A stretch of 64,000 nucleotides of DNA, taken from positions 539 to 64,538 of the IMG/VR virus record IMGVR_UViG_3300049825_000745. The stretch is one strand, 5' to 3'. The stretch's first letter is position 1, and each line of letters begins with the position of its first letter. Under the pieces are notes generated by a model that saw only the letters and a list, made by a program, of their open reading frames with translations, ran no database searches and was not told the DNA's origin. Below, piece after piece: positions 1-63,997 of this stretch. This stretch comes from a virus (taxonomy: Duplodnaviria > Caudoviricetes). Position numbers and translations under genes: made by a program.

Positions 1-944
1 AGGAATTGACCCCATCCAGCGTCATGGGTCGATTTTGCCATCCGAGTTCTGGCAATGCCCTTGATATTGAGCGCCTCATGCCCAATATTCTTTCCTTTGT
101 TTAAAAGCTTTTTAGCTGTCTTGTAGTGAAAGTCTTTGCGTTGATTGGCAACCTTGAGGTGCAATTTAGCCAAACGCTTAATCGCCTTTTTGCGACGGTT
201 TGACCCCTTCTTTTTACGAGACAGGGAACGTTGCACTCGTTTGAGACGTTTCTCGGCTTTGCGGTAGGGTTGAGGGATGGACACCTCTTCACCCGTATCT
301 GTCATCAAAAACACCTTCAGCCCCATATCAATCCCGATAGTGTTCTCCAGGATGGGCGTTTCTGGAATCACATCAGGAACACTGGCATCCTCAAGACTCA
401 GGCTGACATACCAACCATCAGCCTTGAGTGTTATAGTTGCCGTCTTAATTTTGAAGCCTACAGGCAATGGACGGTGTTGAATGAATTTGACATCGCCAAG
501 CACTGGAAACGTAATGAATTTCCCCTCAACACAGTCCTGCTTCATCTGAGGAAATGTGAAAGACCGATATCTTCCTTTCCCCTTAAAGCGTGGTTTACCT
601 GACCTTTTGCCGCTGCTATCTCCTTCCAAAAAACGGTCGAACGCCTTTTTAACTCGTTCAATACAGTTTTGTAAAACTTGAGATTGAACCCTTTTATATT
701 CAGGAAACAACGCTTTGGAGTTAACCAAATCCCGCTTCTGAGAGTAGAAATCAGGATTGTCTTTAAGGGCTGGCAAATAGCAAACCAAAGGACAAGCGTT
801 AATAGGAGATCGGTTCTCCTCATACCAACGAAACCGCTCACCCAAGCGGTAATTGTACTGACGACGCAACAATTCCAGCCAGTTATCCATCAAAGACTCC
901 TGGACAGGTGTTGGGCGTAGTCGATACTGGTAGGCAATTCTCAT
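1..944 (-). CDS. tnpB: TnpB RNA-guided endonuclease, truncated by window edge (absent from ORF track)
   Basis: Manual translation from ATG at 944: MRIAYQYRLRPT...GKPRFK...ADGWYVSL...TIGIDMGLK (RuvC-I D)...KKGSNRRKKA...GHEALNIKG (RuvC-II E)...HDAGWGQF; open to the edge. Confidence 0.95.
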   Translation of the reverse strand, partial: MRIAYQYRLRPTPVQESLMDNWLELLRRQYNYRLGERFRWYEENRSPINACPLVCYLPALKDNPDFYSQKRDLVNSKALFPEYKRVQSQVLQNCIERVKKAFDRFLEGDSSGKRSGKPRFKGKGRYRSFTFPQMKQDCVEGKFITFPVLGDVKFIQHRPLPVGFKIKTATITLKADGWYVSLSLEDASVPDVIPETPILENTIGIDMGLKVFLMTDTGEEVSIPQPYRKAEKRLKRVQRSLSRKKKGSNRRKKAIKRLAKLHLKVANQRKDFHYKTAKKLLNKGKNIGHEALNIKGIARTRMAKSTHDAGWGQF

Positions 945-1007
945 GTCTCTATTATACTCACTGTAGCTTAAAATAGATACACTGATAAGAGAAATCATTG
1001 TAAACTG

Positions 1008-1421
1008 TTGATGAAAGACGATTTTGTATCCAGTGGTAGATCCGTGTCTGACATGAAAGCTCATTTGGTGCTGACAACCAAGTATCGCCGCAAGGTGCTC
1101 ACGGGCGAGATGATTCAACGGCTAGGTGAAGTGATGGGCGATTTATGTCAGAAATGGAACTGCAAAATCGTCGAATTTAATGGCGAAGATAATCACATCC
1201 ATTTGCTATTTCAGTATTTGCCTCAGATGGAGTTACCCAAATTCATCGGAAATTTGAAGTCTGTCTCCAGTCGAAGGCTCAGAGAAGAGTTTCCCGCTGA
1301 AGTTGATAAAGTCTATTGGAAAAAGGTTCTGTGGAACGAGTCTTACTTCATCGCCTCCTGTGGCGGGGTCACAATCTCGGTTCTGAAGAAATACATTGAG
1401 GAGCAAAACACCCCTGAATAG
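1008..1421 (+). CDS. tnpA: IS200-type Y1 HUH transposase
   Basis: HLVLTTKYRRKV, NHIHLL (HUH), LKSVSSR, LWNESYF, KKYIEEQ (catalytic Tyr). Confidence 0.95.
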   Translation: MMKDDFVSSGRSVSDMKAHLVLTTKYRRKVLTGEMIQRLGEVMGDLCQKWNCKIVEFNGEDNHIHLLFQYLPQMELPKFIGNLKSVSSRRLREEFPAEVDKVYWKKVLWNESYFIASCGGVTISVLKKYIEEQNTPE

Positions 1422-1648
1422 GGGCATAGATTATTTGTTCGTTTCGGCACTGTTGCCTTTCCTCGCCTCCGGCATTGGTCAGGCAACGTACCTCAACTCA
1501 CGCGCCTTTCATCCCGACGCTGACCTGAGTACAGGTACAGCGCGGGGCTTCCCGTCTAAAAGCTAAAAAGCGCAACCCATTACAGGAGATAAAAGAGTCG
1601 GGATCGCCTGAGTAGAGTAGAATATCTATAGTTTTAGGCGATCGCCCC

Positions 1649-3229: not shown

Positions 3230-4459
3230 TTATGCACGGATCAACGGGTAAGTTTCAATTTTACTGACATCTACACCATGCCTTCCGAATGAAACTTCCG
3301 GGGCAAGCAAATACCGTTGAGCTAGCTCACAGGTTTTTAGCCTAGACGGTACCTCAAGAGAGTATGGGCGACCTGTAGATGGATCGTAGGTGCATAGGAC
3401 TGTGCCCATACTCGTTTTGATCAGCGATTCCATCCCACCATAGCGGGGCATAGAAATATCTAATACCTCACCGTGAGATTCAGAAATATATCGACTCCAT
3501 CCAAATCGATTAATTCGAATACGACGAATTTCTTCATTCTCCTCATTGTGAATATCTTCAAGGGTTTGAGTTTCAGGACTCATTACAACTTGTTCGGGAA
3601 CAAGATACCCTTCCAGTGCCCAAAGGCAATATCCATCTGCATACTCAACGGCTGGCCCATCTTCACAATGAATACCCCCTGCATCATGCCAGCCTATTTT
3701 TGTGGGGCGATCGCAGACTATGCAAGTATTTTCGAATGGGAAAATCCAGTCTAGATTTTTAACTATTAATTTATATTGTTCAAATTTGTGGTTATCTAAT
3801 TTTGCTCCAGCAATCTTTCCCCCAAGAATATAACCTAGAAAAGCTTTTGCGTAATAAAAATTAAAGCTGTCGCTGAGATTGTCGTGGAGATTGTCGTGGA
3901 GATTGTCGCTGAGATTGGCGATGAGATTGGCGATGAGATTGGTGCGGAGATTGTCGTGGAGATTGGCGATGAGATTGTCGCCGAGATTGGCGATGAGATT
4001 GTCGCGGAGATTGTCGTGGAGATTGGCGATGAGATTGGCGCGGAGATTGGCGCGGAGATTGTCGCGGAGATTGGCGCGGAGATTGTCGCTGAGATTGTCG
4101 TGGAGATTGGTGCGGAGATTGTCGCGGAGATTGGCGCTGAGATTGTCGCTGAGATTGTCGCTGAGATTGTCGTGGAGATTGGCGCGGAGATTGTCGCTGA
4201 GATTGTCGCTGAGATTGGCGATGAGATTGGTGCGGAGATTGGGTTGCTTTAATGTTGTCAACAGTAACATTCCTTCTAATGGACTTTTGCAAAACAAGAC
4301 CTTTGGGGGTTGTTTGTTCACATTAGTATACAAAGCATTGACCGCTTGTTCGGCTAATGCATGATCTGTCGGGCTAGCGCACAAATCATAGATTGATTGT
4401 CGCATTTTGTAGATATCAGCCCATTGAGAAGATGAGATTGTTTCTATTTTTTTAGGCAT
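3230..4459 (-). CDS. DUF6745-like protein with internal tetrapeptide repeats
   Basis: C-terminal WIFPFENTCIVCDRP...HCEDGPAVEYADG...NEEIRRIRI..GW..Y...DPSTGRPYSLEVP; central NLxx repeats. Confidence 0.75.
   Translation of the reverse strand: MPKKIETISSSQWADIYKMRQSIYDLCASPTDHALAEQAVNALYTNVNKQPPKVLFCKSPLEGMLLLTTLKQPNLRTNLIANLSDNLSDNLRANLHDNLSDNLSDNLSANLRDNLRTNLHDNLSDNLRANLRDNLRANLRANLIANLHDNLRDNLIANLGDNLIANLHDNLRTNLIANLIANLSDNLHDNLHDNLSDSFNFYYAKAFLGYILGGKIAGAKLDNHKFEQYKLIVKNLDWIFPFENTCIVCDRPTKIGWHDAGGIHCEDGPAVEYADGYCLWALEGYLVPEQVVMSPETQTLEDIHNEENEEIRRIRINRFGWSRYISESHGEVLDISMPRYGGMESLIKTSMGTVLCTYDPSTGRPYSLEVPSRLKTCELAQRYLLAPEVSFGRHGVDVSKIETYPLIRA
3869..4240. repeat. 12-bp tandem repeat, 31 units, invariant GAGATTG core
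   Basis: GAGATT recurs every 12 nt from 3875 to 4235; the rest of the unit varies among a few variants (TCGTG, TCGCT, GCGAT, GCGCG, GTGCG, TCGCG). Confidence 0.97.
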
Positions 4460-16900: not shown

Positions 16901-19900
16901 AAAGCTGGTGCCTACAGTGGCCTAAGAAAAAACCTGTCACAGGTCAAAGAAGCGGCAGACGCTGGCGATGATACGGCTCAAGGCTTTATTGATGGATTTG
17001 GGCTAAAGGCTGATGTGATTGCCTCAGTTGCCAATAAGGCAGGCAAAGATTTTATTGCTGAAATGAAATCTGTATTAGGAATTGCGTCGCCAGCAAAGGT
17101 CACGATTGAGATTGGGAAACAGACGGTTGACGGTTGGGAGATTGGTCTTGAAGATCTTGATGATGTTTGGATGAGATCGCTTCGGTCACTTAATAAAGCG
17201 ATGAAGACAGGCAAAATTGAAGACTTTAGTTTTACTGATGTTGACCGATTATCCAACTCAATTAAATCTCAAGTTCAGGCTGGCAATCAAAATATTAAGG
17301 TTGACCTTGGTCTTGAAGATCTTGATGATGTTTGGATAAGATCGCTTCGGTCACTTAATAAAGCGATTAAGACAGGCAAAATTGAAGACTTTAGTTTTAC
17401 TGATGTTGACCGATTATCCAACTCAATTAAATCTCAAGTTCAGGCTGGCAATCAAAATATTAAGGTTGACCAATTCGGCACAGTATTAGAAGACGAAAAG
17501 CCTAAAGTTCAGAGAACTTATCGTGAAATTGGGTTTGAGATTGGATCTAAGACAAAAGAAGGCATTGACCAAGCAGCCCCCGTCGTCAAAAAGGCGATCA
17601 CTTCTCTATCAGATGGCATCATCAATCAACTTCGCATCGTTGCTCCTGGTATCACCGGATTTATCGAAGGGATTGGCCTAGACCTTGACAAGTTGAAATC
17701 CCTCGGAGCGGCGGGGCTAACCTTGACGGCTGGAGCCGTTGGGGTGGGATTATTTGGCGGGAAAATCCTTGAGGTTGCCAACAATACCGCCGATGCGGCC
17801 ACAGAGCAAAATCGATATAAACGGATTCTAGACCAAACCGTTGCGGGGGGCGGAGCTAGTTACTACCAAAAACTGGTTAAGCAATCTAATGATTTAGGGA
17901 ACAACCTTCAAAATGCTGTTAAATCTGCGACGGCAATAGAAACAAGTATTCAGAACACCGCGCTGGCTGGGACTGGCGTTGAAATCCTAAGCGGGTTTCA
18001 ATCTCAATTTGCAGCTCAAGGCACACCTGATCAGGACCAAGCGCGCGCGCTTGTGGGGATAGGTCAGGCATTGCGAAAAAACAAGTTGCAGGCTGAAGAA
18101 TTATATCAAGTCATTGAGCCACTACCAGGCGCAATGGAAGCATTGCAGGCCGCAACAGGGAAAACAGGCGCTGAACTATTTAGAGCTACAGCGGCGGGGG
18201 AAGTCTTTACGGAAGACGTGATCCAGTCGTGGTCAGACCAACTCAAAATTGTCTCTGGACTATCAGGATCGTCGAATACCGCAGAAGCAAGTATGGGGCG
18301 GTTGAATAATCAAACTTATCTACTTGCTGCAAACGTGGGGCAGATGACCAACGTTGTCCGCAAGGTAGGTACTGATTTATTCGGTGGCGCTCTTTCTGTT
18401 GCCAACAACAATGCACTATTGCTTGACGCTATGATCGCCACGCTTACCGTATCCTTTGGAGTGGGATTTGTCGCCGCATTAATAAAGGCTGGAGCAACGC
18501 TATTTGCACTTACTGCGACCTCTGCCGTAACTCAGTCTGCTCTAGCGGGGGTGGCCACTGGACTAGGCACTATTGCTACTATTGCGGCCCCGGTGACCGC
18601 TGCCGCCCTTGCGATCGCCGGAGGTTTTGCGCTGTGGGAGCTGACAAAGCCTAGTGACGATGTGGAGAAGCTTGCTAACAATGTTAAAAGGCTTACTGAC
18701 AGACTGAAGGAACTTGAAGCACAGCGGCGCAAAGTAGATAATCCAACAATCGTAAAACCCACTGTTCAGAATCTTTCCCTGCCGCTATCCGGCACAGTGG
18801 ACCCAGCCGCAGGATACAGGGACGCATTCAACGACCTTGCGTCTGGCAAAGTAAAAGAAGATGCAAGCAAAGCCAAGCTTGACGAAACGTTGCAGCGGTT
18901 TTCTAATGGAATTAGCGAGTCATCTTCTTTTCTATCTGATCTAAAATCTAACGAGAAAGATTTATTAAACATTAAAAAACTTTCTTTAGAAATTATTGAG
19001 CTTCAGGGCAAATCAAACGTTTCCAAATACGAAGGAGACACCAATAAAACAACTAAGTACAATGACCAGATCACTGTCCTGACAAAACAACTTGGGACAA
19101 TTAAAAATTCAAGCCAGTTAACTGAGCAAAAAACGATCTTGCAAGGCTTGATCGCTGAATCTGATAAATATATCGCCACACAGCAATCAAGTTCCGACCC
19201 ATCATCAAAATTTAATATCGCAAAGGCAACAGAGTACAAAGATAAACTTAAGAGTATTTATGAAGAGTTAAATAAAATTGATGGGCTAAGTAATACCTCA
19301 CTGCAAAAAATCAATGTGGGTATTGAGAATAAAGTATTGCAGGCTGACCGACTGCTGAAGTTAAAGCAAGACACTGAGCTAAGAATTGAAGCGGAGAATA
19401 TCAAGCAGTTTGGCGGAAGTGGAACTCAGGACCAGGTTCAACTTGGGGTCTTGAAAGCAAAACAGCAGATCCGCAGACTAGATGACACCGCCCAACAGTT
19501 CCGTAGCTATTTAGAGGCTTACAATAAAGCTCTGAAAGCTATCACACCTAAGGATAAATCCGACCTTGCAAGTGCATTGGCAAGTAAAGGCGTCACACTA
19601 GAATCCGCAACAAAAAGCGACTTAGAGGCAGCCATCAAGGTTTTAGAAGCGGGCGATCGCAAGCCATCCGAATCACTCAAAACCTTTGTGAATAGTGCTG
19701 CTATAGCAAAGAAAACAGCAGAGGATAGCCTGTTACAGGGAGCGAAGGAACGCGCTCAAGCTGTACAGGATGAGGCTGCGTCACAGAAGGCATTGAATGA
19801 CGCTCAAGTTGATTACGCCCGTACAATCCGTGATAGCAACTATGAGTTGACAAAGGCAATATCTGACCACTCACGGGAACTTAAAAGGGCTTATGAAGAT

Positions 19901-36812: not shown

Positions 36813-36888
36813 AACCCCACCACCACAAAACAAAATCTTTTGGCAAGTCAAAATTTATCAAAAAAAACAATGAAATTTCACATTTTAG

Positions 36889-37141
36889 TTGACAATTGCC
36901 CACCCGACGAGACGAACAATGAGTGCAAGATTTTTGATATAATCTATATGTGTTGTACACCAATGCCATAAGCGAAAACCAAGCTAACAGGTATGTGTCC
37001 AAGCAAAGATTTGAGTCTTGGGAACCAGGACTCCTGCCCTTGGAGGGTATGTAAGACCAAACGGACTACGGAGTCTTGGCGGCAATGCCCGTTGAATTGG
37101 GAAGCCCACACTGTACCGAAGGTCAGTGTGTGGTAGTTCAC
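36889..37141 (+). mobile_element. IS605-derived omega/reRNA cassette copy 1 (253 bp, no left-end hairpin)
   Basis: Preceded by TTAG (36885-88); ends GAAGCCCACACTGTACCGAAGGTCAGTGTGTGGTAGTTCAC; matches 55083-55335. Confidence 0.88.
36935..36943 (+). promoter_or_regulatory. Extended -10 promoter TGnTATAAT (present in all four cassette copies)
   Basis: TGATATAAT about 200 nt upstream of the TCAC end. Confidence 0.7.
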
Positions 37142-44147: not shown

Positions 44148-44331
44148 TGGCCACACGAATTAATCTAGAAGGCCAGCGGCAAAAAGACGGTCGCCTGACC
44201 GCTATCAAATAGACCTCCAGGAGTCCCGCGCTGTACCTGTACTCAGGTCAGCGTCGGGAGGAATGGAGATCTATTTGAGAAAGATGATTTTTACAAAGCA
44301 AAAAAGTATCAGAGCTGGAATTTTCACATGA
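44147..44331 (+). pseudogene. Short ORF interrupted by a 60-bp palindromic insert
   Basis: MATRINLEGQRQKDGRLTAIK* resumes YLRKMIFT...IFT* if the insert plus one TA is removed; restored stop overlaps the next ATG (ATGA). Confidence 0.6.
44212..44271. mobile_element. 60-bp mini-element: TA duplication, short terminal inverted repeats, IS605 left-end hairpin inside
   Basis: TA|GACCTCCA...CCCGCGCTGTACCTGTACTCAGGTCAGCGTCGGGA...TGGAGATC|TA; core identical to the reverse complement of about 1512-1546. Confidence 0.7.
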
Positions 44332-44800: not shown

Positions 44801-44944
44801 ATGGCTAAAACTGACGAAGAACTCAAGACAATCCACAGTCGGCTAACTTGTTGGATCAAGGCTGAGCCTAGGCAGTGGAAAGATTTGGAGGCTTTCCTTG
44901 GGGCCATGGGGTATCAGATGAAGATTTTCAAAAAAGCCGAATAG
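44801..44944 (+). CDS. Small protein, paralog of 48109-48318
   Basis: MAKTDEELKTIHSRLTCWIKAEPRQWKDLEAFLGAMGYQMKIFKKAE. Confidence 0.55.
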   Translation: MAKTDEELKTIHSRLTCWIKAEPRQWKDLEAFLGAMGYQMKIFKKAE

Positions 44945-47737: not shown

Positions 47738-48112
47738 CTCCTAGACGGGAAGCCCCGCGCTCTATCCGCTTCGGATGAGCGTCGGGATGAAAGGCGCGGC
47801 GGTAAGGAGTCCAACCCCCGAACGATTTTGACCAACGCTCAAACAGTGTGCGGGGTTGGCGATGAGCCGCCAAAAGTGTAAGATAGATGCGGTGTAGTCG
47901 CCCACCAAAATGTCTGTAACCATCAGAACCAGCATAGTTTGGGAATGACATGCAATGTCTAGCTCGACCGTGGGTCATCAGGTCGAGGGGAAATAAAGCT
48001 CGTGGAGGAGTGAGGGTTGCCTCGTCCTGTGAAGCGAGAAGCCAAGGATTCCGAAGCCCGCGCTGTATGCTACGCATCAGCGGCGGGTAAGGGAAAGACT
48101 AGGATATGTCAC
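47738..48112 (+). mobile_element. Non-autonomous IS605 derivative (left end, distinct omegaRNA-like region, right end), 375 bp
   Basis: TTAG|CTCCTAGACGGGAAGCCCCGCGCT...GCGTCGGGATGAAAGGCGCG closely matches the left end at 1562; ends GAAGCCCGCGCTG...CAGCGGCGGG...ATGTCAC. Confidence 0.85.
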
Positions 48113-48318
48113 GAGAGTTTTTTGAAAATCTCGATTTGGTACCCCATAGCGTTCAGGAACGCCTCTAAATCCGTCCACTGGCGTGGTTCTGCCCTAATCC
48201 AGCAGGTTAACCGCCTGTGGATGGTTTTGAGTTCCTCATCGGTCTCAGCGGCTAGGGTTTTACTAGCCGCGTAGATGGTGAGGTTTTCGTTGTCTAGGAT
48301 GGTTTGGATGTTGATCAT
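48109..48318 (-). CDS. Small putative DNA-binding protein; stop codon supplied by the element's right end
   Basis: MINIQTILDNENLTIYAASK...RRLTCWIRAEPRQW...; its TGA is the reverse complement of TCA in TCAC. Confidence 0.6.
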   Translation of the reverse strand: MINIQTILDNENLTIYAASKTLAAETDEELKTIHRRLTCWIRAEPRQWTDLEAFLNAMGYQIEIFKKLS

Positions 48319-54248: not shown

Positions 54249-55019
54249 ATGCCCATTGCCGCCCCCACCGCAACAGGCCAAAAGCAGAAGATCGGAGTGC
54301 AGGACTATATCAGTGCTGCTGACGGCGCTCGGTTTGTGCTGCTTCGGACTGACCCCGATCCGGTGGACACCAAGCCGCTAGAGGATGCGATCGCCCTCCT
54401 TGCCACGAACGAAGCCGCAGACGATAAAACGGTAGAAGCCCTCGACAAATTAGTCAAAGCCATTGACCTAAAACCATTGGGCGATCGCGTTACAGCTCTT
54501 GAATCCAAACCCGTAGTCACTACGGATACGGTTATCTCGGACGACGACCCGACTGACGGAGACTGGAAGCACTGGTTTAAGCGACTTTACGACCGAACCG
54601 CATGGAAGATGGCGGTGATCCACTACGTGCAGATCCTCAAGGGGGAAGCGTGGGCCATGAACGCGGCGGACTGGCGAGATATGGCACCTCCGACGCATGA
54701 GATTGCCGCTGAGTTGAGTCCGGGTCGATTTCAGATTACGCTACCAGGTGGTGCTGTTTTTAGCTACGAGACAGGACGAGGCCAAATCCTTGATGGGCTA
54801 GAGTTTCCAGCGGACGTTTATATAGGTGCTCAAACAGAGTACCGTGATGCAGCGGGGGATCTAATCAACCGCACAGCTCGATACCAATCAATTGCACCTG
54901 GAAGTGTTGCGTTAGGAATGGGGCGGTTGGATGCCCCTGCCAATGCTGTAACGGTTGCGGTTATTTTGATCAAACCGGACAATAGTCAAGTTCGGTATCG
55001 GTACCCGTTGCAACCTTAG
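54249..55019 (+). CDS. Putative virion-associated protein
   Basis: GGAGG RBS; short coiled coil; stop TAG lies in the TTAG target of copy 2. Confidence 0.55.
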   Translation: MPIAAPTATGQKQKIGVQDYISAADGARFVLLRTDPDPVDTKPLEDAIALLATNEAADDKTVEALDKLVKAIDLKPLGDRVTALESKPVVTTDTVISDDDPTDGDWKHWFKRLYDRTAWKMAVIHYVQILKGEAWAMNAADWRDMAPPTHEIAAELSPGRFQITLPGGAVFSYETGRGQILDGLEFPADVYIGAQTEYRDAAGDLINRTARYQSIAPGSVALGMGRLDAPANAVTVAVILIKPDNSQVRYRYPLQP

Positions 55020-55335
55020 CTTGAATAGCAGAAGCCCCGCACCCTACCCACCGGATGGGTGTCGGGATGAATGATAAGTGAGTTGACAATTGCCCACCCG
55101 ACGAGACGAACAATGAGTGCAAGATTTTTGATATAATCTATATGTGTTGTACACCAATGCCATAAGCGAAAACCAAGCTAACAGGTATGTGTCCAAGCAA
55201 AGATTTGAGTCTTGGGAACCAGGACTCCTGCCCTTGGAGGGTATGTAAGACCAAACGGACTACGGAGTCTTGGCGGCAATGCCCGTTGAATTGGGAAGCC
55301 CACACTGTACCGAAGGTCAGTGTGTGGTAGTTCAC
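55020..55335 (+). mobile_element. IS605-derived omega/reRNA cassette copy 2 (316 bp, complete with left-end hairpin)
   Basis: TTAG|CTTGAATAGCAGAAGCCCCGCACCC...GGGTGTCGGGATGAA (left end), then the 253-bp unit of copy 1, ending TTCAC|AGGAG. Confidence 0.9.
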
Positions 55336-55348
55336 AGGAGATCGCATC

Positions 55349-55648
55349 ATGAACAACCCCATAGTCGGAACCACGTACAGGCACTGGAAAGGCGACTTAT
55401 ATAGGGCAATTGGCTTTATCCTTATCAAGAACAACTTTCGCGAAGGCATGGCGATCAAAACTGAGTTTGGTTATGCCATTTGCAGTACGCCATTAGCGCC
55501 AGGAGACGAGGCATTTGTCTATCAGTCCGAGGATGGAGAAAAGTTTGTCCGCACGCGCGAGAGTTTTGCCGAGGTACTTGGGGACAAGGATGAGGGGACA
55601 ATGTACTATCAATTTCAACGAATTATGGAAGAGGCGATCGCCCCATGA
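55349..55648 (+). CDS. DUF1653-like protein
   Basis: YRHWKGDLY...VYQS...FVR..ESF; AGGAG RBS. Confidence 0.7.
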   Translation: MNNPIVGTTYRHWKGDLYRAIGFILIKNNFREGMAIKTEFGYAICSTPLAPGDEAFVYQSEDGEKFVRTRESFAEVLGDKDEGTMYYQFQRIMEEAIAP

Positions 55649-60967: not shown

Positions 60968-61744
60968 TTAGAAGTCGCGGCGTGACAGTGAGCAGCCCCA
61001 GAGTTCTCCTTCAGCTTTTCTTCGTCTGCGTAAGCCCGACTCAGTGGAGGTGCCAGGGTTAACGTAAAGGGAGATTGCCGCAGGGACAGCATCCCAGCTT
61101 TGTTTTTCAATGCATTTATTCAGCGTATTGAACCCATCGGCTCCAAAAGTCCACCCAGTGTTAAACGAAAAACTTAGCAATGCCCCTCGCTGCCCATCGG
61201 TAATTTCTGCCCATCTAGGCGTTGTTTTGGCTAGATGGTTCCAGAATGCTTTGAGATGAAAGCGCAATAAATCCTCAGCTTCTTGCTGAGTTATGCGATC
61301 CCCTATCTGAACCTTTCGCCCATCCTGATAGAAGGTTGCGCCATATCCAATGGTGCAAACGCCTACACCGTCGTCATAGGCATCTAATTCGCATCCTTCA
61401 AACTCTTTGATTAGATTGATGGCCTGTTGTGGGATTTTCTTTTCAGCCTGTGCTTCCGTGATGTGTAAAGCCCCTACCGCTGGACTTGATACGGTAGGGG
61501 TTAGGCTTTTTTTGGAAGAATCCAGTAGCCACACGGCGGTTGTGGGGCCAATATTATTCCCTCCAGAAAGAGAATATTTTTGCTTGAATTGAACCAATGC
61601 ATTTTGTGTTGCGGAGTTGTAAACTCCATCTGCAATAATGGAAAACCCATGCGCTACAAGGACTTGCTGAACTTCTTTGCAAAGCACAGGATCGTTTGAT
61701 AGCTCAGAGAAGGGGATTGAAGTCTTGAGATCTTTTAGTTGCAT
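60968..61744 (-). CDS. Endolysin (PG-binding domain plus GH24 lysozyme)
   Basis: ADGVYNSATQNALVQFK; LIKEFEGC.L.AY.D..GV.TIGYG; ALLSFSFNTG; GLRRRRKAE. Confidence 0.93.
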   Translation of the reverse strand: MQLKDLKTSIPFSELSNDPVLCKEVQQVLVAHGFSIIADGVYNSATQNALVQFKQKYSLSGGNNIGPTTAVWLLDSSKKSLTPTVSSPAVGALHITEAQAEKKIPQQAINLIKEFEGCELDAYDDGVGVCTIGYGATFYQDGRKVQIGDRITQQEAEDLLRFHLKAFWNHLAKTTPRWAEITDGQRGALLSFSFNTGWTFGADGFNTLNKCIEKQSWDAVPAAISLYVNPGTSTESGLRRRRKAEGELWGCSLSRRDF

Positions 61745-61956
61745 ATTTTTGATATAATCTATATGTGTTGTACACCAATGCCATAAGCGAAAACCAAGCT
61801 AACAGGTATGTGTCCAAGCAAAGATTTGAGTCTTGGGAACCAGGACTCCTGCCCTTGGAGGGTATGTAAGACCAAACGGACTACGGAGTCTTGGCGGCAA
61901 TGCCCGTTGAATTGGGAAGCCCACACTGTACCGAAGGTCAGTGTGTGGTAGTTCAC
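61739..61956 (+). mobile_element. IS605-derived omega/reRNA cassette copy 3 (218 bp, no left-end hairpin)
   Basis: TTAG|TTGCAT plus 212-bp core, ending TTCAC. Confidence 0.88.
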
Positions 61957-61961
61957 TTCAC

Positions 61962-62723
61962 TTATTCCACTTTAACGCGATGCACCCAAGCGCCTTTACG
62001 CATTGAGTCAAGTTCGCGCTTTTGATAGATGGCGATCGCGTCTGAAACTGATTGTCCCGCAACAATGGCAGCATATAACCCGTGGGCACTGTAATCGCCA
62101 TCGTATCGATCAACGCTGGGATTATTGTAAGCCCATGCCCCAAAACTGAACTCTGACCACGGATCCTTAACGCTGATTTTGTAACTCATGTTTGACGGGT
62201 CTATCGTTACACCATCTAAGCAAATCACATGGCCCGACCCGGTGAACCAGCCGTGAGTGATTAAAAACTCTCCTGCTTTTAGCCACTCTCTAATTTCAGA
62301 AAGACAGGCATTGTCATCGAAGATATAACGATCACCTAAAGCTTTTTTGAGCAGGACTCCCATCACTCCAGGGTTTCCAGGCTCTCCGATGTCTTCTAGC
62401 TCTGCCCGAATCTGCATGATGTCCGTGCGTCCCGTAGCCATTGCGATGCAGGTTGATTGACAGGTGTAGGCGTTGGGCTGAGATAACAAGCCCTTTGCTT
62501 CTAAAACCTGTTCGGCAAACGTGCCAGACACGCCCTGAGGCTTCGTCTTGACTGGCATCGGTAACGGGACAGGCGCGTTACCGTCTAGATCAAGCGCAAT
62601 AGTATGCGGACGGCTGGGAAGCAAAGGATCTCCAGTAGGAGATTTTTTTACAGTAACTTTAGACGTGAAAAACCCGTCCACCATGTAATACAAAATGCCG
62701 TCTTTATACAGTCCCCAAGCCAT
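61962..62723 (-). CDS. C39-like cysteine peptidase (candidate second lysin)
   Basis: QPNAYTCQSTCIAM, HGWFTGSGHVI, VKDPW. Confidence 0.8.
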   Translation of the reverse strand: MAWGLYKDGILYYMVDGFFTSKVTVKKSPTGDPLLPSRPHTIALDLDGNAPVPLPMPVKTKPQGVSGTFAEQVLEAKGLLSQPNAYTCQSTCIAMATGRTDIMQIRAELEDIGEPGNPGVMGVLLKKALGDRYIFDDNACLSEIREWLKAGEFLITHGWFTGSGHVICLDGVTIDPSNMSYKISVKDPWSEFSFGAWAYNNPSVDRYDGDYSAHGLYAAIVAGQSVSDAIAIYQKRELDSMRKGAWVHRVKVE

Positions 62724-63301
62724 TAGTTTTGCTCCTGTGCGATCGCCGCCAAATCTAACAGACTAATTTTACTACCTCTAGTCAATCCCTCTAGTTCAGG
62801 GTTTGGCGTGGGGATAGGGTTAGGGGGAAGGTGTAACTTCGTCCCTATTTCAACGGGGGCCAGGGCTACACTTTCAGGCCCATTATCAGCGGGAAACTGT
62901 TCCTGCTTTTGAACTGTATCAGGCGTAACTAGCTGCCCAGTCGTGGCCTTTTCTGCCAAAAGAACTTCTGCCCCCGTCATAAACACTTGATACAGCGCGT
63001 CTTTTTTATTTCGCCCTGGTTTGCCGTCTGGGGTGTAGTTGTAGGGGCGGCAAGCGTGGTCAGCGTATAGCGCCGCTCCTACTTTTTTGTTGCCCGTATA
63101 AAACGCTGTGAGCGCAATTACAGCAACGCCAGGTGTAACATATTTCTGGATTTGGGGAGGCAGCAATGCCCCTACTCCAATCTGGTCGAGGAAGGCAACG
63201 CCCCCCGCAATCCCCGCGACTAAATTGCTAAATCTTCTCAACCACTTAACCTGGGAAATCGTAAATGATTCATCAATTAACTTGGGCGGCCTGACGTCCA
63301 T
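62723..63301 (-). CDS. Two-TM membrane protein, candidate holin
   Basis: Two hydrophobic segments near the N-terminus; first gene of the lysis operon, TAATG-coupled. Confidence 0.45.
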   Translation of the reverse strand: MDVRPPKLIDESFTISQVKWLRRFSNLVAGIAGGVAFLDQIGVGALLPPQIQKYVTPGVAVIALTAFYTGNKKVGAALYADHACRPYNYTPDGKPGRNKKDALYQVFMTGAEVLLAEKATTGQLVTPDTVQKQEQFPADNGPESVALAPVEIGTKLHLPPNPIPTPNPELEGLTRGSKISLLDLAAIAQEQN

Positions 63302-63779
63302 AAAAATCCTCGTTTTATCTAATATTATCCTTTAGAGTCCCGATATGCTTGCATCAGGTAAGTATATCGGGACTTTATTTACGTTCCAAATACGCTTTCT
63401 AGTTGGGCGATCACCGCTGCATCAATCGAAGCGGTTTTCTGCCCAAAGAAGTCGTCGAGCTTTATTCATATTAGCGCAAAGCCTTGCCCTGACTGCTTCT
63501 TAGTATTTCTTCGTTTCAGCAGTTCTAGAGTAATTTATAAACAATGGGGCATTAAATGCCGCACCCCAATGATCAACCCTGACATACTCAGCAGGAACAT
63601 GATCTGGACGGTTCGACTCAGATTCTTTCAGTAACAATGTAAAATCAATATCGGACATGCTTTGTTGCTCCAAAGTGTGTCCCCCTATTCTAACAGGCTC
63701 CCACCACGCCGGACCCCTTCAACCCTGACCCCATGCCGAGATCGCCAAGAACATGCTACGGTAACAAAGGACGATTTAG

Positions 63780-63997
63780 TTGCATATTTTTGATATAATC
63801 TATATGTGTTGTACACCAATGCCATAAGCGAAAACCAAGCTAACAGGTATGTGTCCAAGCAAAGATTTGAGTCTTGGGAACCAGGACTCCTGCCCTTGGA
63901 GGGTATGTAAGACCAAACGGACTACGGAGTCTTGGCGGCAATGCCCGTTGAATTGGGAAGCCCACACTGTACCGAAGGTCAGTGTGTGGTAGTTCAC
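63780..63997 (+). mobile_element. IS605-derived omega/reRNA cassette copy 4 (218 bp, no left-end hairpin)
   Basis: TTAG|TTGCAT plus core, same as copy 3 but with different flanks. Confidence 0.88.

Follow-up and report, generated by a model that had tools for sequence, protein, structure and literature searches.

In-place loss of the left end as a candidate origin of single-ended IS200/IS605-type guide-RNA cassettes in a cyanophage genome

The stretch of viral DNA analysed here, hereafter called the window, comprises 64,000 nucleotides (bases 539–64,538 of the 64,538-bp virus record IMGVR_UViG_3300049825_000745), and carries four plus-strand copies of a short repeat whose predicted parts, namely an extended −10 box, an omegaRNA-like RNA, and a right end, identify them as TnpB-less cassettes of a cyanobacterial IS200/IS605 lineage. 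The four copies are 100% identical over a core of 213 nt, from ATTTTTG through ..GTAGTTCAC. Copy 2 (positions 55020–55335; 316 bp) is the sole cassette with a left end and lies directly 3′ of TTAG at 55016–55019. Briefly, a 16-nt spacer ending in the guide tetranucleotide AAGC (55020–55035) is followed by an imperfect hairpin of 31 nt (55036–55066), a conserved 16-nt box, ATGAATGATAAGTGAG, that ends in GTGAG (55067–55082), the extended −10, TGATATAAT (55129–55137), the omegaRNA-like RNA, and the right-end hairpin (55299–55327), after which the element ends in ..GTAGTTCAC. Copy 1 (36889–37141; 253 bp) starts with TTGACAATTG directly after a TTTAG at 36884–36888, and is equal to copy 2 minus exactly the first 63 nt, i.e., the whole left-end module. 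Its first base is the one right after the GTGAG box of copy 2, and the AG of the boundary is common to this internal GTGAG. Copies 3 (61739–61956) and 4 (63780–63997) are both 218 bp long and share the left junction TTTAG|TTGCATATTTTTG; copy 4 lies at the contig end and runs on into contig bases 1–124 via an overlap of 127 bp. On neither side do copies 3 and 4 have related flanks. The junctions are reproduced in unitigs assembled at k=31. The preliminary description of this DNA, which had reported such a 316/253/218-bp series with the two shortest copies at unrelated TTTAG sites, stands.

TTAG is found directly 5′ of all four cassettes, as well as of the resident IS and the second small element described below, and the flank is not directly repeated at any of them. 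Since TTTAG occurs at a frequency of only 0.0012 per position on the plus strand, the three flush boundaries of the left-end-less copies are far beyond chance. In DNA folding, the left-end module and the right end reach −10.7 and −9.3 kcal/mol, respectively, and the first 70 nt of the 218-bp and 253-bp forms reach −3.4 and −1.9 kcal/mol; neither a left hairpin nor a substitute hairpin was found in these left 70 nt of copies 1, 3, and 4.

The left junction of the 218-bp form deserves closer description. Copies 3 and 4 had been said to share the same further deletion; the shared junction is real, but a clean deletion would not produce it. The sequence is ..ATGAGTGCAAG|ATTTTTG in the long form and TTTAGTTGCAT|ATTTTTG in the short one, with TTGCAT in copies 3 and 4 replacing the TGCAAG of the long form. 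Upstream of the −10, copies 1 and 2 retain the ancestral sequence ..ATGAGTGCAAGATTTTTG, as do L193, the nearest relative among the genomes (91% identity), and a contig of 399 nt from run X2 of another study, which shows 1 difference in 212; copies 3 and 4 have TTTAGTTGCATATTTTTG instead. The sequences searched contained no additional copy of the 218-bp form. The endolysin gene (60968–61744, minus strand; Phage_lysozyme, with a weak PG_binding_1 match) abuts copy 3, and its predicted ATG is the CAT within the first six bases of that copy (61739–61744), which is the only plausible ATG; with copy 3 taken away, the gene would be left without an ordinary start codon ahead of the peptidoglycan-binding part. 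Speculatively, the TTGCAT patch might have been selected at the site of copy 3 through this endolysin start, and then copied to the site of copy 4.

The soundness of the shared junction was assessed by unitig depths in run X1, which contains 0.94 of the sampled words and is possibly the source sample, so that the depth check is not independent. The depths were 350 for the phage flank, 1280–1359 for the core, 577 for the junction of the TTTAGTTGCAT type, and 622 for the junction of the GCAAG type. The core thus stands at ~4 times the depth of the phage flank, with no further abundant copies seen. These depths fit two loci per junction type (2+2), and the shared junction is no assembly collapse, a doubt that the preliminary description had itself raised. 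The assignment of right flanks to the individual copies rests on assembler scaffolding, the identical 213-bp core being longer than k, whereas that of the left junctions does not.

The right-end 18-mer was found in 48 stretches of genome contigs, a few of which are chance matches in unrelated bacteria; its hosts are mostly Brasilonema, Cuspidothrix, Microseira, Dolichospermum, Plectonema, Scytonema, and their relatives. The related elements are of two kinds. The first comprises tnpB-bearing insertion sequence (IS) copies of 1.5 kb, such as those of genome G003, where 11 identical ones occur; over their last ~130 nt, these IS copies show homology with the 3′ half of the phage cassette. The second comprises tnpB-less cassettes with a TGnTAnAAT-like box, a conserved 5′ domain of ~80 nt, a shared 3′ domain, and the right end. 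The −10 box of the phage copies, TGATATAAT, is conserved in this TGnTAnAAT-like form among the relatives, and we infer that the cassette may have promoter activity; a two-hexamer promoter scan found no promoter. Three of the four cassettes point into plus-strand genes and could act as mobile promoters, and the right flank of copy 2 (55336–55355), which would be its guide, coincides with the ribosome-binding site and start codon of the next plus-strand gene (AGGAG, 8 nt, ATG). Among genomes from the order of Cuspidothrix, one search with E up to 1e-20 and five candidates scored per genome gave cassettes in 14 of 151, and another with E up to 1e-25 and two candidates scored per genome in 27 of 401. 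Four copies are present in the phage, and one to five matches per cyanobacterial genome were obtained among the candidates scored. A 32-mer scan of metagenomes gave no match, and a 22-mer scan gave two family members, which belong to another subfamily. In several relatives (L022, L030, L183/L208, L079, L080, and L083), small secondary insertions of ~25–60 nt, consisting of GC-rich hairpin-like repeats, sit in the guide-RNA region or at the 3′ end of tnpB.

An RNA alignment was built from the phage cassette and 13 relatives out of seven named genera (14 cassettes; mean column identity, 85%). The consensus fold contains 42 predicted pairs, with 97.3% of the cells paired. Compensatory changes occur in six pairs, which was reached by 1 of 500 shuffles, and the covariation score is 0.156 versus 0.099 (reached by none of 500 shuffles, with all slid controls lower), the structure having been derived from the same alignment as that tested, which favours the structure. 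A long-range helix pairs the terminal GGUAG with an upstream CUGCC, as for a scaffold whose guide is the flank. Judged by this predicted fold, the cassette RNA is omegaRNA-like, being structured and having a 3′ end that coincides with the right end of the element. Rfam showed no match at gathering score across the whole window, and a search of copy 2 with E up to 10 gave none either. None of the guides, whether of the four cassettes or of the resident IS described below, has a second match of at least 11 nt in the phage.

All six complete left boundaries in the phage, i.e., those of the four cassettes, of the resident IS, and of a second small element, follow TTAG, which together with a Y1_Tnp match of the phage transposase bears out the IS605-family identity and the TTAG target proposed earlier. 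Among the relatives and the phage elements, the left guide varies together with the target. Left guides of the type AAGC, TAGC, or AATC accompany a TTAG target (copy 2, the resident IS, the second small element, L020, L032, L076, L078, L163, L171, L175, L178, and L205), guides AAGT, AAAT, or AATT a TTAA target (L012, L164, L166, L167, L169, L177, L180, L184, L186, L191, L194, L196–L198, L200, L203, and L204; L202 has TTTA), and guide AAGG a TTAC target (the IS of G003, L077, L081, L082, and L083). The right end always has GAAG with TCAC, and the right-end foot GGGAAG|C is invariant across the TTAG, TTAA, and TTAC subfamilies. This covariation supports recognition of the cleavage and target sites by the tetranucleotide 5′ of the hairpin foot, and agrees with the pairing rule (AAGC with TTAG, GAAG with TCAC) applied in the preliminary description. 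In IS608, the left site TTAC lies 19 nt 5′ of the hairpin (16 nt here) and the right site TCAA 10 nt 3′ of the hairpin (8 nt here), and each is recognised by the tetranucleotide 5′ of the foot (PMC3201880). Three micro-elements of ~60–100 nt are also found after TTAA in the Cuspidothrix genome G001 (L187, L191, and L186); the left spacer, guide, and hairpin are fused to the last eight right-end bases (TAGTTCAC), with both cleavage sites kept, and the fusion point of L187 falls inside the arm of the hairpin.

We surveyed the left boundaries of defective cassettes across the family, by alignment to the nearest full copy for 12 cassettes and by eye for the remainder; the count given here covers 17 left-end-defective cassettes with a determinable boundary, and nine others lie outside it. 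Seven of the 17 are flush with the cognate target, at TTTAG in copies 1, 3, and 4 and L195, and at TTAA in L028, L165, and L011. Their inner end points lie right after the left-end module in copy 1, ~10 nt before the −10 in copies 3 and 4, ~55 nt before the −10 in L028 and L165, at the −10 in L011, and inside the RNA in L195, which has lost the promoter. The microhomology at the junction is 2 nt in copy 1, 3 nt in L028, 1 nt in L165, and 0 nt in L011 and L195. The remaining ten are non-flush: L201 and L207 lost the hairpin by deletions at microhomologies of 5 and 3 nt, respectively, with the first left-end bases kept; L070, L071, L073, L174, L179, L182, and L193 are truncated or decayed; and the last is L084. 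Outside the phage, each flush left-end-less copy is a singleton in its genome, and the Cuspidothrix and G077 genomes have one left-end-less cassette each, alongside many left ends. Three kinds of candidate were rejected in this survey. L084 (Brasilonema) was considered as a copy of the 253-bp type, and its left 42 nt turned out to be another repeat family with more than 15 loci; L026 was dropped, as the alignment could not fix its left boundary; and the left-end-only matches in G001 and G077 were not accepted as solitary left ends, being mostly at contig ends. In a narrow literature search, which did not cover the extended data of Meers et al. on palindrome-associated transposable elements (PATEs), copies that lack the left end and sit flush with the target were not found described.

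The fixed left boundary, the variable inner boundary, and the absence of proliferation fit with an anchored, nick-type loss, and we therefore favour, with moderate confidence, the reading that the left end was lost in place, with the deletion anchored at the TnpA cut, and that the short forms would be locked at their sites and not mobile. The cassettes would have entered the cyanophage by the ordinary chemistry of TnpA, 3′ of TTAG, with the target picked by the AAGC guide at the foot of the left-end hairpin, and three of the four copies would then have lost the left end at their sites. By cutting exactly after TTAG, TnpA would leave the flank with an intact 3′-OH and the element with a protein-linked 5′ end. 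Where the cut does not lead on to excision, this 5′ end may be trimmed and rejoined, or alternatively synthesis may jump the gap via microhomology of 0–3 nt; either route would produce a deletion that starts at the cut and reaches variably into the element. Copies without the left end could not be excised, and would accumulate and outlast the intact copies. Both this nick-and-trim mechanism and the persistence through immunity to excision are what we infer. According to a preprint, reintegration in this family is much less efficient than excision (Meers et al., bioRxiv 10.1101/2023.03.14.532601), which would favour the survival of non-excisable copies. The preliminary description had mentioned repeated post-insertion loss that locks the copies only as the alternative to transposition with one hairpin; the varied inner end points and the singletons outside the phage make it the better fitting of the two.

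Several points weigh against this reading. Copies 3 and 4 share TTTAG|TTGCAT|ATTTTTG, as compared with the ancestral ..ATGAGTGCAAG|ATTTTTG, and two independent in-place deletions are not expected to create the same non-templated patch; for the shared patch to arise, the short form must have been copied once, or else the same event must have happened twice to an unseen parent. In addition, three of the four copies, which are identical and hence recent, must each have lost the left end quickly. The boundary calls are ambiguous by 0–3 nt and partly made by eye, nine cassettes are unclassified, and the ten non-flush copies among the 17 imply that other decay routes operate too. A description of nick-and-trim for IS200/IS605 elements was not found in a literature search that was not exhaustive. 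Since two independent deletions giving the same patch are unlikely, one 218-bp copy probably gave rise to the other, and a left end in trans or conversion are the live explanations for this pair.

The rival that survives best, though still an unlikely one, is that the left end acts in trans: TnpA holding a left hairpin on another molecule would read the TTAG of the short form and that of the new target, with the right end in cis. This phage genome has three intact left ends with the AAGC guide, those of copy 2, the resident IS, and the second small element, any of which could supply the hairpin. At least one move of a short form, between copies 3 and 4, would have taken place, for which the odds seem to us equally modest. 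Such a move could explain the derived patch common to the two 218-bp copies at unrelated TTTAG sites, and in this respect the earlier suggestion of left ends in trans keeps some ground. According to He et al. 2011 (PMC3201880), integration already pairs the left guide with a foreign TTAC in trans, and transpososomes were reconstituted from separate left-end and right-end oligonucleotides. The copies flush with TTAA are also compatible, as the left ends of those genomes carry AAGT. However, ready mobilisation predicts families, and outside the phage all left-end-less cassettes are singletons with inner end points of their own. The case rests on one pair only, and a three-DNA complex in vivo was not found described in the literature consulted.

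Somewhat less probable again is break repair or conversion, in which a break at or near TTAG is repaired by copying another cassette. The break could be a TnpA nick at a resident long copy, or a cut of an emptied site by TnpB with its omegaRNA. With the TTTAG common to the copies as primer and annealing within the 213-nt core, such repair could truncate the left side or spread the 218-bp junction without transposition. Every copy is indeed preceded by TTTAG and has the same 213 bases on its right side, and conversion would account for the identical junctions at two sites and for the perfect identity of the core; moreover, the copying of a sister molecule driven by TnpB is the published role of these nucleases, according to Meers et al. 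(bioRxiv 10.1101/2023.03.14.532601). On the other hand, TnpB cuts inside the guide-matching flank, and flank bases should often be kept, whereas none of the three junctions shows any; the primer homology of 5 nt is very short; and the TnpB of the phage is only 30–36% identical to the TnpBs that accompany the cassette type of RNA, with scaffolds that align poorly.

Transposition with the right hairpin alone is very improbable. The preliminary description had pointed out that GAAG and AAGC occur one base apart in the right-end foot, which is confirmed in GGGAAGCCCAC, and had proposed that this hairpin might serve both roles, with GAAG for TCAC and the shifted AAGC for TTAG. The hairpins of the two ends are similar in shape, and single-hairpin derivatives do exist in Cuspidothrix (L187, L191, and L186), though they keep the left hairpin and not the right. 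The proposal fails, however, on the foot GGGAAG|C: as it is the same in the three target groups and does not track the target, the AAGC one base along from GAAG is a constant of the family and not a tuned second guide. Furthermore, all three informative left-end-less copies flush at their boundary lie at TTAA and not at the TTAG predicted from the shifted AAGC; of these, L028 and L165 could be placed in the TTAA subfamily by their genomes. In IS608, the target is reset by changes of the left guide and not by those of the right guide (PMC3201880). Finally, although the contig end falls inside a repeat with a 127-bp overlap and the identical core exceeds k, we can practically dismiss an assembly artefact, i.e., repeat collapse or mis-joining that creates the shared left junction or the copy number, as the independent k=31 unitigs give the same junctions, the depths of 577 and 622 against 350 for the flank and ~1300 for the core correspond to 2+2 copies, and both the left and the right junctions are four distinct ones.

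Besides the four cassettes, the phage carries other elements of the IS605 type. The resident autonomous element with TnpA and TnpB (1–1562, minus strand, extending past the window start) was recognised by profile matches and by its ends. Its tnpA (1008–1421, plus strand) matches Pfam Y1_Tnp over the full profile length (5.9e-44), and two motifs visible by eye are what we take to be the HIH and SYF motifs. Its tnpB runs leftwards from 947 on the minus strand, with the stop 270 nt before the window start, and matches the OrfB_IS605 and TNB domains. The left end (1497–1562, minus strand) consists of TTTTTAG|CTTTTAGACGGGAAGC, a hairpin, and ATGAAAGGCGCGTGAG, and the right end (minus strand), which stops at contig base 239 outside the window, of ..GAGAAG, a hairpin, and AGTATGTCAC. 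As the left-end modules of the resident IS and copy 2 have the same plan and the same guide, the resident TnpA is a plausible actor on the cassette ends. In view of the low identity mentioned above, the phage TnpB is probably not the cognate nuclease of the cassettes.

The second small element (47738–48112, plus strand; 375 bp) is non-coding, of the resident-IS type, and has both ends: TTAG|CTCCTAGACGGGAAGC and a hairpin on the left, and on the right a hairpin followed by ..GGATATGTCAC, with TCAC 25 nt after the right hairpin instead of 10. It has its own TGTAAGAT box and a guide-RNA region of the resident type. A 132-nt inverted repeat (44804–44935 and 48118–48249; 77% complementary) has its right arm beginning 6 nt after the right end of this element. 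A solitary left-end-like hairpin module (44222–44279, plus strand) is 84% like the left end of the resident IS and ends in TTTGAG; at the guide position it has a decayed GAGT, and TTAG is absent from the expected distance. It may be a relic of an element with the right part gone. Elsewhere in the window, ~27 tandem 12-nt units (3808–4302, in the minus-strand open reading frame 3230–4459) encode NL(S/R/H/I)(D/A/T) tetrapeptide repeats in a protein of 409 residues, and a 165-nt tandem duplication, 99% identical, occupies 17142–17471.

The contig bears markers of a tailed phage, namely a portal protein (Phage_portal_3, 9.8e-41) and the endolysin (Phage_lysozyme, 1.9e-25). Both the GCGATCGC motifs and the hosts in which the related elements all occur suggest a cyanophage of filamentous cyanobacteria. 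The completeness estimate given for the viral record is 73%. The 'direct terminal repeat' of the record is exactly 127 bp (contig bases 1–127 and window positions 63871–63997 plus ACG) and lies wholly inside the multi-copy element; the 127-mer ending in ACG is also present at copy 1, which is followed by ACG as well, and the circular closure is thus ambiguous. Since the repeat is made up of the cassette plus ACG, it is an overlap of a k=127 assembler and no physical genome end, and it should not be taken as a genome end in annotation. The cassette query gave no match in the phage collection, and the right-end 21-mer none in viral contigs; a 3.8-kb flank query matched only 117 bases of a Synechococcus phage; and 77 viral loci match the lysozyme domain of the endolysin only, with identities of 61% or less. 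Runs X3 and X4 contain only flank pieces at low depth. No close phage that could serve for an empty-site comparison was found in these searches.

Among known systems, the elements resemble IS608 (ISHp608) of Helicobacter pylori, the reference for 'peel and paste' transposition, in the Y1 HUH transposase, the subterminal hairpins at both ends, the insertion 3′ of a tetranucleotide without duplication, and the recognition of sites by the tetranucleotide 5′ of the foot of each hairpin. They differ from IS608 in the target TTAG and the right cleavage site TCAC, in the conserved 16-nt box after the left hairpin, and in that the phage cassettes have no protein gene and three of the four have no left end. 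REP elements with RAYT transposases, one-ended events of IS91, and 5′-truncated Helitrons are other cases in which HUH enzymes act on, or leave, elements with a single end or a single hairpin; they belong to other enzyme subfamilies with other end architectures, and there is no evidence that the short forms were made or moved in these ways. PATEs, the protein-less derivatives of IS200/IS605 elements, some of which encode omegaRNAs, resemble copy 2 and the 47738–48112 element, which are likewise short and non-coding with both ends and an omegaRNA-like RNA. In contrast to PATEs, the cassettes have a conserved extended −10 and a conserved, covarying 5′ domain in place of the coding part of tnpB, and copies 1, 3, and 4, which lack one end, do not have the two ends that characterise PATEs. 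According to the preprint, PATEs 'often encode omegaRNAs' for use in trans (Meers et al., bioRxiv 10.1101/2023.03.14.532601), and Altae-Tran et al. 2023 (PMC10691335) mention standalone omegaRNAs. Cyanophage A-1(L) of Anabaena has a tnpB element of the IS200/IS605 type identical to host copies, according to Shi et al. (bioRxiv 10.64898/2026.02.14.705889), and is thus another phage of filamentous cyanobacteria with a guide-nuclease IS element; it is reported with one tnpB, and the main text makes no mention of tnpA, whereas the present phage has tnpA and tnpB, a second small element, and four cassettes. PATE-like omegaRNA elements and tnpB elements in cyanophages of Anabaena are hence already known, and a narrow literature search found no description of a phage so heavily colonised by IS605-type elements.

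Anchored deletion by TnpA, if true, would be a side reaction that turns mobile guide-RNA elements into fixed ones. Such fixing could plausibly be how the domestication of TnpB guide RNAs begins, and would account for the commonness of orphan right ends. If instead the left ends do act in trans, the minimal requirements for single-strand transposition would need revision, and cassettes of a promoter and a guide RNA would spread in a phage genome with only their own right end, in a mode not yet described; we regard this as a doubtful prospect. This cyanophage carries a full IS605 toolkit together with five small derivatives, which raises the question of whether the cassettes may serve as guide-RNA genes or as mobile promoters during infection.

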